NCBI GenBank assembly: GCA_017463105.1
Contig: JAFTPU010000013.1
Span: 25,769 to 89,768 of the forward strand
DNA: 64,000 nt
Direction of reading: 5' to 3'
From: Clostridia bacterium
GTDB taxonomy: Bacteria; Bacillota; Clostridia; Christensenellales; Borkfalkiaceae
The position numbers and the translations under genes are program-made. This document shows, one piece after another, positions 10,416 through 20,985 of this stretch (positions are counted from its first letter, which is position 1; every line of letters starts with the position of its first letter). Under the pieces are notes generated by a model. It was not told the origin of the DNA and did not search any database. It saw only the letters and a program-made list of their open reading frames with translations.

Positions 10416-11300
10416 ATGAAGCTTACGAAAATTTTCGAAAAGAACGAATATTCCCTGTCCTTCGAGGTGTTTCCGCCCAAGACGGACGACGTGTACGACA
10501 GCGTAAAGACGGCGACGGAGGAGATCGCGCGGCTCAAGCCCTCGTTTATGAGCGTGACCTACGGCGCGGGCGGCGGTACGAGCAAGTATACGCTGAAGAT
10601 CGCGGAAGAGATCGCGCGCGAGCACGACGTTCCTTCGCTTGCCCATCTCACCTGCGTGTCGTCGACGAAAGAGACGGTGCGGGCGCGTATCGAGGATTTC
10701 AAAAACGCGGGCGTCGAAAACGTCATGGCGCTCCGCGGGGATATCCCCCAAAGCATGCAGGAGGAGAACAGAGCGAATTGGGACTACCGTCACGCGGTCG
10801 ATCTGATCGCCGAGCTGAAAGCAAGCGGCGCGGATTTTTGTATCGGCGGGGCGTGCTATCCCGAGGTGCATCCCGAGAGCGGCTCGCAGAAAGAGGATAT
10901 CCGCCATTTAAAAGAAAAGGTCGAGGCGGGTTGCGAGTTTTTGACCACGCAGATGTTTTTCGATAATAATTTATTATACAATTTCCTGTATAAAATTCGC
11001 GAGGCGGGGATCACCGTGCCCGTGATCGCGGGGATCATGCCGATTACGAACGCGAAGCAGGTGGAGCGCGCGATCAAGCTTTCGGGCTCGTTCATGCCCC
11101 AAAGGTTCAAGAGTCTCGTGGATAAATTCGGCGGCGACCCTGCGGCGATGAAACAGGCAGGCATTGCGTATGCGACCGATCAGATCATCGATCTGTATGC
11201 GAACGGAGTCAATCACGTGCACGTGTATTCGATGAACAAGCCCGACGTGGCGGCGAAGATACAGAGCAATCTCTCGGATATTTTGGGCAAAAATGCTTGA
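10416..11300 (+). CDS. metF: 5,10-methylenetetrahydrofolate reductase
   Basis: 294 aa. The MTHFR pattern runs throughout (SFEVFPPKT, SVTYGAGG, HLTC, ALRGD, and the CYPE..HPES region). Confidence 0.9.
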   Translation: MKLTKIFEKNEYSLSFEVFPPKTDDVYDSVKTATEEIARLKPSFMSVTYGAGGGTSKYTLKIAEEIAREHDVPSLAHLTCVSSTKETVRARIEDFKNAGVENVMALRGDIPQSMQEENRANWDYRHAVDLIAELKASGADFCIGGACYPEVHPESGSQKEDIRHLKEKVEAGCEFLTTQMFFDNNLLYNFLYKIREAGITVPVIAGIMPITNAKQVERAIKLSGSFMPQRFKSLVDKFGGDPAAMKQAGIAYATDQIIDLYANGVNHVHVYSMNKPDVAAKIQSNLSDILGKNA

Positions 11301-11970
11301 CGGCGTGTTTATCGAAAATTACGCCGCGCCGCCCGTGGACGAGCGGGAGATACTCCGATATGCGGGGAACAAGGCGGACGCGGACGAGAGCTTGAAAAAG
11401 CTCCTCGACGAGTGCTTGCGCGAGTGCTTGCCCGTGCTTTCCTATCGCGTGTGTTACGCCGTGGGAAAGGCGCGGGAGCTCGAAGAGACTTTCGGCGGGG
11501 AATATAAGGGCACGCTGTTGACGAGGCGGCTTTGCGGCGCGGAATACGCGGCGGCGTTCGCGGCGACGGTGGGTTTGGGTATCGATCGGCTGATCCTGCG
11601 GTATACGGAGGTCGCGCCGACGAAAGCGCTGTTATTGCAGGCGATCGGCGCGGAGCGGATCGAGGCGCTTTGCGACGCGTTTTGCAAGGATATGCAAACG
11701 GAATGGGCGACGAAAGGCTTTAAGGTCGGCGCGCGGTTCAGCGCGGGCTACGGCGATTTTCCGCTGACGGCGCAAAGGAAGATATTCGCTTTGCTTTCGC
11801 CCGAGCGCAGGATAGGTCTGACGCTGAACGGTTCGCTTCTTATGACCCCGACGAAGTCGGTGACGGCGATCGTACCGATCGGCGGGAACGCAACGCTAAG
11901 CGGCGGTTGCGCGGAATGTGAGCTGAAAGAATGTGAAATGAGGGGCGGCGTAAGAGGTCAAGGAACTTAG
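11293..11970 (+). CDS. stand-alone methionine synthase activation (AdoMet-binding/reactivation) domain protein
   Basis: 225 aa matching the MetH activation-domain pattern (RFSAGYGDFPL..Q..IF.LL...IGL.L..S.LM.P.KS). It overlaps the metF stop by 8 nt. Its last codons and stop lie inside repeat E1. Confidence 0.75.
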   Translation: MLDGVFIENYAAPPVDEREILRYAGNKADADESLKKLLDECLRECLPVLSYRVCYAVGKARELEETFGGEYKGTLLTRRLCGAEYAAAFAATVGLGIDRLILRYTEVAPTKALLLQAIGAERIEALCDAFCKDMQTEWATKGFKVGARFSAGYGDFPLTAQRKIFALLSPERRIGLTLNGSLLMTPTKSVTAIVPIGGNATLSGGCAECELKECEMRGGVRGQGT

Positions 11971-12211
11971 TTCCTTGCGGATTGTAAAGGCAGAGCCTTT
12001 ACGCCTCGACGGCAGTCGCCGTCCGTAGGGCGGAAGAATGCCCTCTCGAAAGCAAAACGAAGTTTTGCATTACTATGCCGAAAGGCGTAAAGCGCAAGCC
12101 CGCTTGCGTTGATCGCTTACGCGGTAGTGGCAAATCAAAGATTTGCTATTTGGGGTTGATTATGCGAGGGCTCCGCCCTCAACCTCCCGCAAGGGACAAT
12201 GTCCCTTGACC
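11956..12211. repeat. multi-hairpin intergenic element E1 (head-to-head dimer, 11 consecutive hairpins)
   Basis: The ends are inverted: GGTCAAGGAAC-TTA-GTTCCTTGCGG ... CCGCAAGGGAC-AAT-GTCCCTTGACC. The right arm read on the reverse strand aligns hairpin-by-hairpin with E2 and E3. Confidence 0.85.
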
Positions 12212-12236
12212 CTTAATGAAAAAGAGATAAAGTGTT

Positions 12237-16054: not shown

Positions 16055-16076
16055 GTAAAACGCTTTAACGGTAAAG

Positions 16077-16247
16077 GGTCAAGGGACGTTGTCCCTTGCG
16101 GGAGGTTGAGGACGGAATCCTCGCATAATCAGCCCCAAGATAAGCAAAGCGGAGCTTTGCGCCCTTACCGCGAAGCGGTCAATGCGATTTATCGCAAGAA
16201 AAAAATAAAAACGGAGAAACCTTGCCTACTGCTATGCGGTAGGCAAA
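16077..16247 (+). repeat. multi-hairpin intergenic element E2
   Basis: It contains six hairpins: 16080-16098, 16108-16122, 16144-16160, 16167-16179, 16183-16196 and 16222-16246. The first 55 nt are nearly identical to the reverse strand of E1. Confidence 0.85.
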
Positions 16248-16259
16248 AGGTATTTAATA

Positions 16260-17645
16260 ATGGCTATGGAAAAAATGTGGGCGGGACGCTTCCAAAAAGC
16301 GCTCGATAAAAAGGCGGACGATTTCAATTCTTCCCTTCGGTTCGATTGCCGTATGTACGCGCAGGACATCAAGGGCTCGATGGCGCACGCCGCCATGCTT
16401 GCCAAGCAAGGTATCCTTCCGCAGTCGGAGGTCGATCTCATCATCGACGGCTTGGAGGGGATACTTCGCGATATCGACGCGGGCAAGCTCGCTTTTGACG
16501 GCGACGCGGAGGATATCCATATGTTTATCGAAGCGGAGCTCACCAAGCGTATCGGCGACGCGGGTAAGCGTTTGCACACCGCGAGGAGCCGTAACGATCA
16601 GGTGGCGGTCGATATCCGTTTATATCTCCGCGACGAGGCGGAAACGGTCGTTTCGCTGATCGCAGAGTTGGTGAAAGCGGTGACGGATAAGGCGGAGGAA
16701 AGCGCGGATATCATCGCGCCGGGGTATACGCATTTGCAACGCGCGCAGCCTATTTCGTTCGGACATCAGTTGGCGGCGTACGCGATGATGTTGCTTCGCG
16801 ATATTTCTCGGATAAAGGACGCCGTCAAGCGTATGAACTATTCGCCTTTGGGAAGCTGCGCTTTGGCGGGCACGACCTATCCCACCGACCGTGCGTTCGC
16901 GGCGCAGAAGCTCGGCTTCGACGGGATCGTGCAAAACAGTATCGACGGCGTATCCGATCGCGATTTCTGCGTGGAGCTGATGAGCGCGTTCGCCGTTTTG
17001 ATGATGCACCTTTCCCGTTTTTCCGAAGAGATCGTTTTATGGTCGAGCTGGGAATTCAAATTCATCGAGCTGGACGATTCGTATACGACGGGTTCGTCGA
17101 TCATGCCGCAAAAGAAAAACCCCGATATGGCGGAGCTGGTACGCGGCAAAACGGGCAGAGTCTACGGAAATTTAATGGCGCTTCTGACCACGCTCAAAGG
17201 TTTGCCGCTTGCATATAATAAGGATATGCAGGAGGATAAGGAAGCGATTTTCGATTCTTTGGATACGGTGAAAATGTGTCTGGAGGTGTTCGCGCCCATG
17301 ATCGCGACGATGAAAGTGAACGGCGAAAACACCTACCGTGCGGCGCAGAAAGGCTTTATCAACGCGACCGACCTTGCCGATTATCTTGCGAAAAAGGGCA
17401 TGCCTTTCCGCGCGGCGTACAAGATCGTGGGGCAGATCGTTGCGGCGTGTATCGAAAAGGATCGCGTGCTGGATAATTTCCCGCTCGAGGAATACAAAAA
17501 ATACAGCGAGCTGTTCGAGGAAGATCTGTATGACGAGATCTCGCTCGAAACGTGCGTGAACAAACGCACGTCTGCGGGCGGCGCTTCGCCTTCGTCGGTG
17601 AAAACGCAGGTCGCGTACGTGAAAGAGGAATTGAAAAAGATATGA
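16260..17645 (+). CDS. argH: argininosuccinate lyase
   Basis: 461 aa with the fumarate-lyase signature GSSIMPQKKNPD. Confidence 0.95.
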   Translation: MAMEKMWAGRFQKALDKKADDFNSSLRFDCRMYAQDIKGSMAHAAMLAKQGILPQSEVDLIIDGLEGILRDIDAGKLAFDGDAEDIHMFIEAELTKRIGDAGKRLHTARSRNDQVAVDIRLYLRDEAETVVSLIAELVKAVTDKAEESADIIAPGYTHLQRAQPISFGHQLAAYAMMLLRDISRIKDAVKRMNYSPLGSCALAGTTYPTDRAFAAQKLGFDGIVQNSIDGVSDRDFCVELMSAFAVLMMHLSRFSEEIVLWSSWEFKFIELDDSYTTGSSIMPQKKNPDMAELVRGKTGRVYGNLMALLTTLKGLPLAYNKDMQEDKEAIFDSLDTVKMCLEVFAPMIATMKVNGENTYRAAQKGFINATDLADYLAKKGMPFRAAYKIVGQIVAACIEKDRVLDNFPLEEYKKYSELFEEDLYDEISLETCVNKRTSAGGASPSSVKTQVAYVKEELKKI

Positions 17646-18598: not shown

Positions 18599-19816
18599 AT
18601 GTTGAAACAAATTCAGGGCGGCGTGTGCGCCGCGAAAGGTTTTAAAGCAAGCGGCGTGCATTGCGGTATCCGCAAAAACAAGACCAAACGCGATCTTGCG
18701 CTCATTTACAGCGAAAAGAAAGCGACGGCAGCCGCCGCATATACGCAAAATCTCGTGAAAGGCGCGCCCTTGACCGTGACGAAAAACAATATTTCGGACG
18801 GGTACGCGCATGCGGTGATCTGCAACAGCGGCAACGCAAACACCTGTAACGCGAACGGTATCGAGATCGCGGAGCAGACCTGTAAGCTCGTCGCCGACGC
18901 GCTGGGCATTTCCGCGAAGGACGTCGTCGTGGCTTCGACGGGCGTTATCGGTCAGCCCCTCGACGTCACGCCGATCGCAAACGGTATTCCCGCGCTTGTG
19001 GCGGGCTTGAGCGACGAAAACAGTACGCTTGCTTGCGAAGGGATCATGACGACGGACACGAAGCTCAAGGAGATCGCGTTCGAGTTTACGGCGGGCGGTA
19101 AGACCTGCCGTATCGGCGGTATCGCCAAGGGCAGCGGTATGATCCATCCCAATATGGCGACGATGCTCGTATTCGTGACGACCGATTGTAAAATTTCCGC
19201 GGCAATGCTGCAAAAGGCGCTTTCGGCGGATATTTTGGATTCGTTCAATATGATCAGTATCGACGGCGATACCTCGACGAACGACATGGTTTCCGTGCTG
19301 GCAAACGGTACGGCGGATAATGAGGAGATCGTTTCGGAAGGCGCGGATTACGACGCGTTTTGCGAGGCGCTCGCGGCGGTAACGAAATATCTTTGCCGCA
19401 TGATCGCGAGCGACGGCGAGGGCGCGACGAAGCTCCTCGAATGTAAAGTGGACGGCGGCAAGGACGAAAAAACGGCGAAAACGGTCGCGAAATCGGTGAT
19501 CTGCTCGTCGCTTTTGAAAGCCGCGATGTTCGGCGCGGACGCCAATTGGGGGCGCGTGCTTTGCGCGATCGGTTATTCGGGTGCGGACGTGGACGTAAAC
19601 AAGGTAGACGTTTCTTTCCGTTCGGCAAAGGGCGAGATCCTTGTTTGCAAGGACGGCGCGGGCGTGGCGTTTTCCGAGGAAAAGGCGAAGGAGATCTTGC
19701 TTGAGAGCGAGATCGAGATCTTGATTTCCTTGCACGACGGCGCGGCTGTCGCTACTGCGTGGGGGTGCGATCTGACGTACGATTACGTGAAGATCAACGG
19801 CGATTACAGAACCTAA
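18599..19816 (+). CDS. argJ: bifunctional glutamate N-acetyltransferase / amino-acid acetyltransferase
   Basis: 405 aa with the autoprocessing site region HPNMATMLVFVTTD. Confidence 0.95.
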   Translation: MLKQIQGGVCAAKGFKASGVHCGIRKNKTKRDLALIYSEKKATAAAAYTQNLVKGAPLTVTKNNISDGYAHAVICNSGNANTCNANGIEIAEQTCKLVADALGISAKDVVVASTGVIGQPLDVTPIANGIPALVAGLSDENSTLACEGIMTTDTKLKEIAFEFTAGGKTCRIGGIAKGSGMIHPNMATMLVFVTTDCKISAAMLQKALSADILDSFNMISIDGDTSTNDMVSVLANGTADNEEIVSEGADYDAFCEALAAVTKYLCRMIASDGEGATKLLECKVDGGKDEKTAKTVAKSVICSSLLKAAMFGADANWGRVLCAIGYSGADVDVNKVDVSFRSAKGEILVCKDGAGVAFSEEKAKEILLESEIEILISLHDGAAVATAWGCDLTYDYVKINGDYRT

Positions 19817-19823
19817 TATAAGA

Positions 19824-19945
19824 AGTCAAGAAACTTAGTTTCTTGTCAGGGGTGCGGGGGCGGAAGCCCCTGCGAAAACAGCCCAAGATAAGCAACCGTA
19901 GGTTGCGCCTATACCGCCATAGGCGGTTAGTGCAACGCAGTTGCA
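19824..19945 (+). repeat. multi-hairpin intergenic element E3 (most diverged copy)
   Basis: It contains five hairpins: 19827-19845, 19857-19870, 19892-19906, 19913-19927 and 19931-19945. Their order and the linker CAGCCCAAGATAAGCAA match E2. Confidence 0.8.
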
Positions 19946-19969
19946 TATTATAAAAAGAGGTGGAATATA

Positions 19970-20830
19970 ATGGAACTTACCAAAGCGCAGAAGGCGGAAA
20001 TTTTAAACCAAGCCCTGCCGTATATCAAAAAATACAGAGATAAGATACTCGTCGTAAAATACGGCGGTAACGCCATGATCAACGAGGAGCTCAAAGAAGC
20101 GGTGATGGGGGACATCGTCCTGTTGTCGCTGATCGGTATCAAGGTCGTGCTCGTGCACGGCGGCGGTCCCGAGATCACCGAAATGCTCGGCAAAGTCGGC
20201 AAGAAATCGGAATTTGTCGACGGACTTCGCGTAACGGATAAGGAAAGCGTCGAGATCGTGCAGATGGTGCTGGCGGGCAAGGTGAATAAAAATCTCGTCA
20301 ATCTTTTGCAGAACAAAGGCGGCAAGGCGATCGGGCTGTGCGGTATCGACGGGCATATGATCAAAGCGAAAAAGGCGGACGAAAGATTGGGCTTTGTCGG
20401 CGAGATCACCGAGGTGAACGCTTCGCCCATTCTCGACGTTTTGGAAAAGGGATATATCCCCGTGGTTTCGACGATCGGCTACGACACGGACGGCAACGTT
20501 TACAACATCAACGCGGACACGGTGGCGGCGCGCCTTGCGGGCGAGCTCAAAGCGGAGGGCTTGATCTCCATGACGGATATCGTGGGTCTGCTCCGCGATA
20601 AGGACGATCCGTCGACTCTGATCCCCAAGGTATACGTTTCCGACGCGCCCCAGCTCATTCGCGACGGCATTATCAGCGGTGGCATGATCCCCAAAGTCAA
20701 TTGCTGTATCGAAGCGATCCGCCGCGGCGTTAAAAAAGTGTTCATCATCGACGGCAGAATTCCCCATTCGATCTTGATCGAAACGCTTACCGACGAGGGT
20801 ATCGGCACGATGTTCGTTTCCGGGAATTAA
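19970..20830 (+). CDS. argB: acetylglutamate kinase
   Basis: 286 aa with the amino-acid kinase pattern VVKYGGNAM and VLVHGGGP. Confidence 0.95.
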   Translation: MELTKAQKAEILNQALPYIKKYRDKILVVKYGGNAMINEELKEAVMGDIVLLSLIGIKVVLVHGGGPEITEMLGKVGKKSEFVDGLRVTDKESVEIVQMVLAGKVNKNLVNLLQNKGGKAIGLCGIDGHMIKAKKADERLGFVGEITEVNASPILDVLEKGYIPVVSTIGYDTDGNVYNINADTVAARLAGELKAEGLISMTDIVGLLRDKDDPSTLIPKVYVSDAPQLIRDGIISGGMIPKVNCCIEAIRRGVKKVFIIDGRIPHSILIETLTDEGIGTMFVSGN

Positions 20831-20843
20831 GGAAAACCCGACG

Positions 20844-20868
20844 AAACGCGTATAAGGGCGCGTTTTTT
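20844..20868 (+). terminator. hairpin plus T-run between argB and argD (internal terminator or attenuator)
   Basis: AAACGCG-TATAAGGG-CGCGTTT followed by TTT. Confidence 0.5.
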
Positions 20869-20985
20869 ACTTCAACGGCATTCACCTTGCTCGTTTACAG
20901 ACGTAAAGTCGCGGCGGTGAAACTTCCGCCTTCAGTACAAATCGGCAACCCTTCTCCGCGTTTGAGGTAAAACGGAATAAAAATC

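Follow-up and report, generated by a model that had tools for sequence, protein, structure and literature searches.

E3, a copy of a modular hairpin-string repeat in the argJ-argB spacer of Candidatus Scatosoma: conserved pairing and probable role in the transcript

In the MAG analyzed here (G000; 1.29 Mb, 80% complete), the genes argJ and argB are separated by a spacer of 153 nt that holds the five consecutive hairpins of an element termed E3. The locus raises the question of what this element is, how its stems have remained paired, and whether they matter as RNA or as DNA. Positions refer to the window, i.e. the whole stretch of 64,000 nt that was analyzed, and are collected in Table 1. A first-pass annotation had described five hairpins, h1 to h5, within 19824-19945. 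Both the sequence and the DNA fold bore this out and placed them at 19827-19945: the + strand folded as DNA with -33.6 kcal/mol (z -6.6 versus shuffles) and yielded exactly h1-h5. Folded as RNA, the spacer gave -59.2 kcal/mol on the + strand (z -5.9 versus shuffles) and -51.1 kcal/mol on the - strand (z -4.5 versus shuffles), i.e. the + strand fold of E3 was 8 kcal/mol more stable. The GGAA loop described for h2 was present (19854-19873), and the linker was indeed almost unchanged, because segment 19879-19895 equaled the linker of the related copy E2 apart from a one-base deletion. This linker had 2 matches in the window versus 0.07 expected. The description of h2-h5 as perfectly paired does not hold for h2, which contains one G.T pair and is thus not fully Watson-Crick; h2 is flanked by GGG (19850-19852) and CCC (19882-19884), which are able to close it. 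Rfam, with its riboswitch, omega-RNA/HEARO, IS605-orfB, and other families, gave no match in the window at gathering scores and none at E values up to 10 in 19700-20100.

Table 1. Features of the E3 locus and related repeat copies in the window
Feature	Position	Strand	Remarks
E1a	11942..12115	+	GGAAC-type h1; covariance model match 107 bits; site empty in G092
E1b	12086..12225	-	Inverted copy, dimer with E1a; covariance model match 112 bits
E2	16063..16206	+	Copy in argG-argH spacer; covariance model match 121 bits
argJ	18599-19816	+	Open reading frame
argJ stop codon TAA	19814..19816	+	From open reading frame and sequence; element starts 1-4 nt 3' of stop
E3 5' leader	19818..19826	+	Diverged form of the family GAT-AGAGGT leader; from family and orthologue alignments
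h1	19827..19845	+	8-bp stem, TTA loop, GAAAC-type variant; G092 orthologue identical
h2	19854..19873	+	8-bp stem with one G.T pair, GGAA loop ("type C" module)
Conserved linker	19879..19895	+	Runs into h3 5' arm; from sequence match and family alignment
h3	19892..19906	+	6-bp stem, GTA loop; in G092 stem same, loop different
h4	19913..19927	+	6-bp stem, ATA loop; in G092 stem same, loop different
h5	19931..19945	+	6-bp stem, GCA loop; found only at E3 locus in both genomes
argB ribosome-binding site and ATG start	19958..19972	+	Outside element; aligns with short spacers of empty-site relatives
argB	19970-20830	+	Open reading frame

The repeat family

E3 belongs to a dispersed repeat family with the layout 5' leader, h1, h2, linker, h3, h4, h5. 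A covariance model, R1, was built from 22 copies. E3 matched it over its full length (1-146) with 97.2 bits (E 6.5e-35), a score that is partly obtained by construction as E3 was among the training sequences; at least 170 copies outside the training set matched R1 too. With nhmmer and the covariance model, about 23-25 copies were detected in G000. They were located on 11 of the 14 contigs, on either contig strand, and adjoined unrelated genes. Copies also occurred as tandem arrays and overlapping inverted pairs. Eighteen of the 24 sampled genomes of the genus Candidatus Scatosoma harbored copies (1-67 each), several 95%-complete genomes had none, and the closest sister genome, the Candidatus Scatosoma MAG G092, had 92. 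Copy number was thus patchy, ranging from 0 to 92 within one genus. Outside the genus but within the same order, only the h1-h2 core was recognizable (30-53 bits) in about five other families; across the order, the stem base at the foot of h1 was conserved and the stem tips varied. Full-text literature searches yielded no description of this family, only the analogues BOX, bcr1, and REP/BIME. The family is an undescribed member of a familiar class of bacterial repeat.

Several observations were made on other copies and their surroundings. The open reading frame upstream of E1 (11293-11970) ends with a TAG stop that is supplied by the loop of E1a h1, and its product has ~25 additional C-terminal residues, Cys among them, that the G092 orthologue lacks. 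The repeat insertion thus reshaped a protein C terminus. Downstream of E2, a hairpin at 16220-16251 precedes the argH start, its 3' arm overlapping the likely argH ribosome-binding site. The segment ~16213-16262 is the same in G000 and G092 except for two substitutions near the argH start, and nearby spacer and four-fold sites have diverged; independently of the repeat, this hairpin may be a true leader or regulatory structure of argH. Several copies are bordered on both sides by short AT-rich tandem motifs (AATGCAAAAT type) and then a GTGGAA-GAT segment (L001/L002 at G000 C14:31569-34593, C1:9916-10330, and C14:125452-125530), an arrangement that suggests either a unit extending beyond the model or a preferred target. 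The copy at C8:59562-59672 (L018), whose site is empty in G092, closes on the element + strand with a hairpin and a subsequent T-run. This end resembles a terminator, and some subfamily members may supply terminators. The argB-argD spacer of G000 (20831-20985) comprises 155 nt and gave no R1 match; in G092 this site is occupied by an R1 copy with a high score (137.8 bits, L161:7534-7678). What G000 has there may be another repeat family or a decayed copy.

Conservation of pairing and modes of change

E3 was compared with its orthologue in G092. Not one of the 52 stem bases in h1, h3, h4, and h5 differed, whereas differences were present in the h3 and h4 loops, in the linker between h4 and h5, and in the 3' flank. 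In argB, 56 of the 122 four-fold sites (46%) differ between G000 and G092. Had the stems drifted at the four-fold rate, ~24 changes would be expected, and by our arithmetic the chance of none is 0.54^52, about 1e-14. The lack of any stem change at a fixed locus over this divergence indicates that pairing itself is under selection, and such selection in E3 is well supported. For seven clean orthologous pairs of the two genomes, 36 of 350 stem bases differed versus 165 of 680 unpaired positions. On inspection of these alignments, every stem change kept pairing, and one was a Watson-Crick to G.U step.

Pairing was also evaluated across the family in two alignments, A2 with 63 copies and A3 with 131 (194 in total). 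Stem cells were paired in 99.0% (A2) and 98.5% (A3) of cases, versus 85 and 83%, respectively, in column shuffles and 39-54% when partners were slid by 1-3 columns. Both sides had changed in 18 of 25 pairs in A2 and 23 of 25 in A3. Because the alignments were fitted to a model that favors pairing and because the copies are related, these counts set an upper limit on independent support; neither bias affects the comparison of orthologues. Compensatory change is given as lower bounds derived from pair types and stem variants, and a single tree of copies is meaningless because modules swap. The view that pairing is constrained and the family old was supported by the paired fraction of stem cells and by the unchanged stems of E3 in the sister species. 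Frequent stem-breaking single substitutions, the sign of unconstrained pairing named in the first-pass annotation, were not seen.

The change in the first hairpin turned out to be smaller than annotated. It had been described as a triple compensatory change, but it is a double one, affecting two adjacent base pairs relative to E1b and E2: CAAGAAAC and CAAGGGAC differ at two positions, and the 3' arms likewise (alignment columns 25/35 and 26/34). No h1 stem is more common in the genome than the one-step intermediate, GGAAC/GTTCC, which E1a has as well (at 11959), and contig C10 contains a G.T form that lies between the GGGAC and GGAAC types (C10:52764). As both forms exist, the h1 change of E3 was no single jump. 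Among the h1 stems of the 194 copies, 13 forms were fully Watson-Crick, 9 had only G.U departures, and 4 had only A.C departures; the G.U forms are intermediate between observed Watson-Crick forms.

The preference for G.U had a strand polarity. On the element + strand, 152 G.U/U.G pairs were counted in the family alignments versus 23 A.C/C.A pairs. Stem variants with G.U were present in up to 31, 15, 10, 9, and 8 copies, those with A.C in at most 2, and among single-copy variants, tallied by eye, about 24 had G.U versus 11 with A.C. At two sense-oriented loci, G.U in h1 was kept in both species.

Besides such stepwise changes, whole modules have been replaced. The h2 module of E3 is of type C in G000 and of type A in G092, with the neighboring stems on both sides untouched, and it is 96.5% identical over 58 nt to the G000 copy C3:13131-13188. 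In the G092 orthologue of E2, h1, h2, and h3 have been replaced and h4 and h5 kept. Whole-module replacement was observed in other orthologous G000/G092 pairs as well. Copies of type B carry two extra hairpins, and internal sub-repeats are duplicated in relatives. The GAAAC-type h1 of E3 is found in 2 copies in G000 and in about 31 in G092. The proposal that the stems of E3 were re-written in place by compensatory mutation was therefore not upheld, since its h1 type is a pre-existing subfamily variant and its h2 was swapped whole; most of the apparent re-writing of E3 is sampling from a pool of already paired variants. Neither is E3 the main source of covariation, as had been assumed, given ~23-25 family members in this genome and hundreds in relatives. 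For covariation in repeat families generally, each difference should not be counted as an independent mutation.

Replacement of this kind raises the possibility that pairing was kept without any selection on E3, through concerted evolution, with gene conversion by other well-paired copies, or through hairpin-templated quasi-palindrome repair, with E3 being inert filler. The exchange of whole modules at orthologous loci and the near identity of the E3 h2 with another G000 copy agree with this idea, as do the perfect palindromes, an expected product of template-switch repair. It is at odds with h5 and the 6-bp h4 of E3, for which neither genome offers a donor and both arms of which are nevertheless unchanged. 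Loops and linkers of the same modules have changed, so simple recent overwriting does not apply. Moreover, template-switch repair would erase G.T pairs and act strand-symmetrically, but G.U persists at the same loci in both species and outnumbers A.C by the 152 to 23 given above. We judge this explanation to be improbable.

Insertion at the argJ-argB site and strand of action

The argJ-argB junctions of 30 genomes of the genus and 43 further ArgB loci were compared. Only G092, whose ArgB is 93% identical, had an R1 copy in this spacer, at the same place relative to the stop codon and the ribosome-binding site; no R1 copy was present in the spacer of about 70 other relatives. In 10 of the first 30 genomes the spacer measured 12-21 nt and held the ribosome-binding site only, the stop lying directly before the ribosome-binding-site spacer, and in many other relatives it contained unrelated repeat families. 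The h5 and the 6-bp h4 of E3 occurred nowhere else in G000 or in the 329 kb of G092 fetched around its 92 copies. Their presence in both genomes indicates that the two E3 copies stem from one insertion and not from parallel hits. Elsewhere, ~11 of some 17 evaluable G000 copies had a counterpart at the same site in G092. The sites of E1 and C8:59562 were empty in G092, and that of C14:125523 probably was as well.

Three other repeat families were noticed in argJ-argB spacers. One, with ~130-150 nt per unit and unrelated to R1, was present in L056, L059, L060, L064, L065, L077, and L080, with up to four tandem units (L080, 521-nt spacer). Another was found in L068, L075, and L078, and a further one, consisting of GTGAATTG-spaced hairpins, in L067 and L074. 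Judged from these spacers, argJ-argB is a site repeatedly invaded by different repeats in Scatosoma species.

The position of E3 inside the arg operon just upstream of argB, together with two more copies in the same met/arg gene cluster, might point to an arginine-specific cis-regulatory RNA, i.e. a riboswitch, an attenuator, or a protein-binding leader for argB. This candidate was rejected on the distribution of the family and is highly improbable: the ~70 relatives have an argJ-argB spacer of 12-21 nt or unrelated repeats in it, family members adjoin unrelated genes on 11 of 14 contigs, h2 was swapped whole while the context remained unchanged, and Rfam had no match even at E values up to 10.

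The orientation of copies was examined relative to their neighbors. Among 39 copies with scorable neighbors, 31 were in the sense of the flanking genes and 8 were antisense. GC skew is strong in this genome, and of the five copies for which skew and transcription are discordant, four follow transcription; a 4 to 1 count at n = 5 is only suggestive evidence against the replication strand as the source of the orientation bias. In the 8 antisense copies, G.U followed the polarity of the element and not that of the transcript (7 G.U versus 2 A.C). Part of the G.U polarity may thus have been inherited from source copies and not selected in each host transcript. No terminator-like site was found on the + strand of E3. 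Its - strand has two, formed by h1 and h3 followed by T-rich tails, and such tails could make reversed copies harmful inside operons. The sense bias could in part also be due to the mode or place of insertion. Many of the loops are C-GNA-G triloops, which are very stable in DNA hairpins as well. Taken together, polarity, orientation, and the G.U data favor a role in the transcript without proving it.

With modest confidence, we consider it probable that E3 is an old copy of a modular hairpin string whose pairing has been selected on one strand and which most likely acts in the transcript. This copy of roughly 130 nt would go back to a single insertion between the stop codon of argJ and the ribosome-binding site of argB, which took place in an ancestor shared by this genome and its closest sister species, and would have been kept since. 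Selection would keep each hairpin paired on one strand, which is the mRNA sense in E3 and in ~80% of scorable copies. Variation would arise by two routes, single base-pair replacements through G.U intermediates and replacement of whole modules by variants of other copies, by gene conversion or recombination. The site of action of the hairpins would most likely be the transcript. As E3 lacks a U-tract when read in sense, transcription of the arg operon should pass through it, and stable stems lined up between cistrons could protect mRNA ends or define them. Read the other way, h1 and h3 would be followed by U-rich tails and look like terminators, which would explain the orientation bias. The patchy copy number and the sites that are empty in the sister species are as expected for a selfish element.

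The same two observations also fit the view that the hairpins matter as single-stranded DNA. E3 would then be a non-autonomous mobile element whose stems are recognized or needed in copying, e.g. by an HUH-type or other transposase or at the replication fork, and pairing would be a condition for spreading, not an operon function. In line with this, the family varies between 0 and 92 copies within one genus, is present or absent at orthologous sites, and forms tandem arrays and overlapping inverted dimers. The G.T polarity tracks the element even in antisense copies, the C-GNA-G triloops are numerous, and the base of h1/h2 is conserved across several families with variable tips, like a protein recognition site.

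The enzymes and insertion footprints expected for such an element were less evident. Y1 transposase (PF01797) was absent from G000 and from G006, G009, G011, G021, G014, G005, and G012, which carry 25-67 copies each; it was present in G015, a genome with zero copies. TnpB (PF07282) was detected in 1 of 24 genomes of the genus, one with zero copies, and thus the PF07282 search revealed no association of the kind expected for a TnpB/IscB omega RNA. Neither reverse transcriptase nor DUF559 nuclease correlated with copy number in the 24 genomes. A reverse-transcriptase domain (PF00078, E 8.7e-13) was noted in a 424-aa open frame at G000 C10:98052-98654; it is one of only two such domains in the 25 genomes of the genus including G000 and is unrelated to copy number. 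As the MAGs are incomplete, these enzyme negatives are weak evidence. Three sites that carry a copy in G000 but none in G092 showed no clean target-site duplication: in the empty/occupied pair of C8:59562, 1-2 nt (A or TA) at most could be duplicated, and the junctions of E1 and C14:125523 were rearranged. TATAA flanks E3 on either side in G000, though not in G092. Terminal inverted repeats of the MITE type were not present on single units, as the 5' end (leader and h1) is not the reverse complement of the 3' end (h5 and tail), and inverted ends occurred only in two-copy dimers such as E1. Inspection of the family alignment revealed no GTAG or CGTC tag at the stem foot; GTAG was confined to sequences spanning the loop in some h3 and hY hairpins, and a CGTC tag was absent.

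Against a role limited to single-stranded DNA stand, first, the failure of any candidate enzyme to track copy number, a weak point given the incomplete MAGs, and the lack of a clear target-site duplication. Second, the stems have stayed intact at fixed loci across the 46% four-fold divergence of argB, which a need for pairing in transposition only leaves unexplained. Third, orientation tracks transcription and not GC skew in four of the five discordant cases. We hold a DNA role to be possible but rather unlikely, and prefer the reading in which the stems of E3 are selected in the transcript.

A bolder variant of an RNA role, to which we assign a low probability, is that a ribonuclease or RNA-binding protein of the host docks on the h1-h2 core. 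In that case the repeats would be widespread intercistronic RNA elements that set mRNA ends and operon stoichiometry. The idea derives from the conserved stem base with freely varying tips, the recurrence of the core in several families, and its one strand polarity. If it is true, an undescribed class of RNA elements would be used by, or would exploit, gut Clostridia. An RNA intermediate in the spread of the copies, a more radical version, would explain the G.U polarity.

Known repeats and significance

By analogy of design, the repeats closest to the Scatosoma family are the BOX elements, with bcr1 similar too and the REP/BIME mosaics a looser match. BOX of Streptococcus pneumoniae has the composition boxA-boxB(n)-boxC (Croucher et al. 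2011, PMC3049150). BOX shares with the Scatosoma repeat a modular build and dispersal in intergenic regions of Gram-positive genomes, internal modules that vary in number and are gained or lost at a fixed locus, predicted stem-loops when co-transcribed with neighboring genes, and the lack of a dedicated transposase inside the element. Conserved end modules with variable internal ones are likewise found in both, as a matter of design and with no homology claimed; no sequence relationship was seen. The A and C ends of BOX pair together, whereas the Scatosoma repeat strings together at least five short hairpins that are independent of each other; the module replacement between copies and the G.U strand bias observed here were not found in the description of BOX consulted.

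The bcr1/bcr repeats of the Bacillus cereus group (Okstad 2004, Klevan 2007, and Kristoffersen 2011, reviewed in PMC3184786) resemble the family in being dispersed Firmicutes repeats of about 150 nt whose distribution is not conserved between relatives (PMC3184786). They are thought to be a special class of mobile sequence, and compensatory base changes keep their predicted RNA structure (PMC3184786), as was also found in the Scatosoma family. They differ in having 5-bp flanking direct repeats and known transcription, for which the Scatosoma repeat offers its operon position and sense bias as indications, and in their two-arm, cruciform-like fold, which contrasts with the modular hairpin string. 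Copies of bcr1 are also reported to have lost structural stability several times (PMC3184786), whereas 98.5-99% of stem cells are paired here.

REP sequences are palindromes of 20-40 bp with a GTAG or CGTC tag at one end (PMC3733652). The REP/BIME/REPIN systems (RAYT; Enterobacteria, Pseudomonas) are similar to the Scatosoma family as high-copy extragenic palindromes arranged in mosaics, in forming inverted dimers (compare E1), and in their intercistronic and 3' positions (PMC3733652, PMC3184786). The documented effects of REP on mRNA stability provide a working model for the Scatosoma repeat (PMC3733652, PMC3184786). Unlike REP, the latter lacks the GTAG/CGTC tag, and G000 and the highest-copy relatives have no Y1/RAYT gene. 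Its units are also longer, with different hairpins in a set order.

In uncultured gut Clostridia, much of the non-coding DNA is taken up by small dispersed repeats that are missing from RNA and repeat databases. Such repeats break MAG assemblies, with many copies at the ends of contigs, and can pass for riboswitches or other regulators. E3 represents an unusually clean natural experiment, in which one insertion is followed in two species with stems untouched, loops changed, and one hairpin swapped. It illustrates that families of this kind evolve both by classic compensatory steps and by module shuffling.
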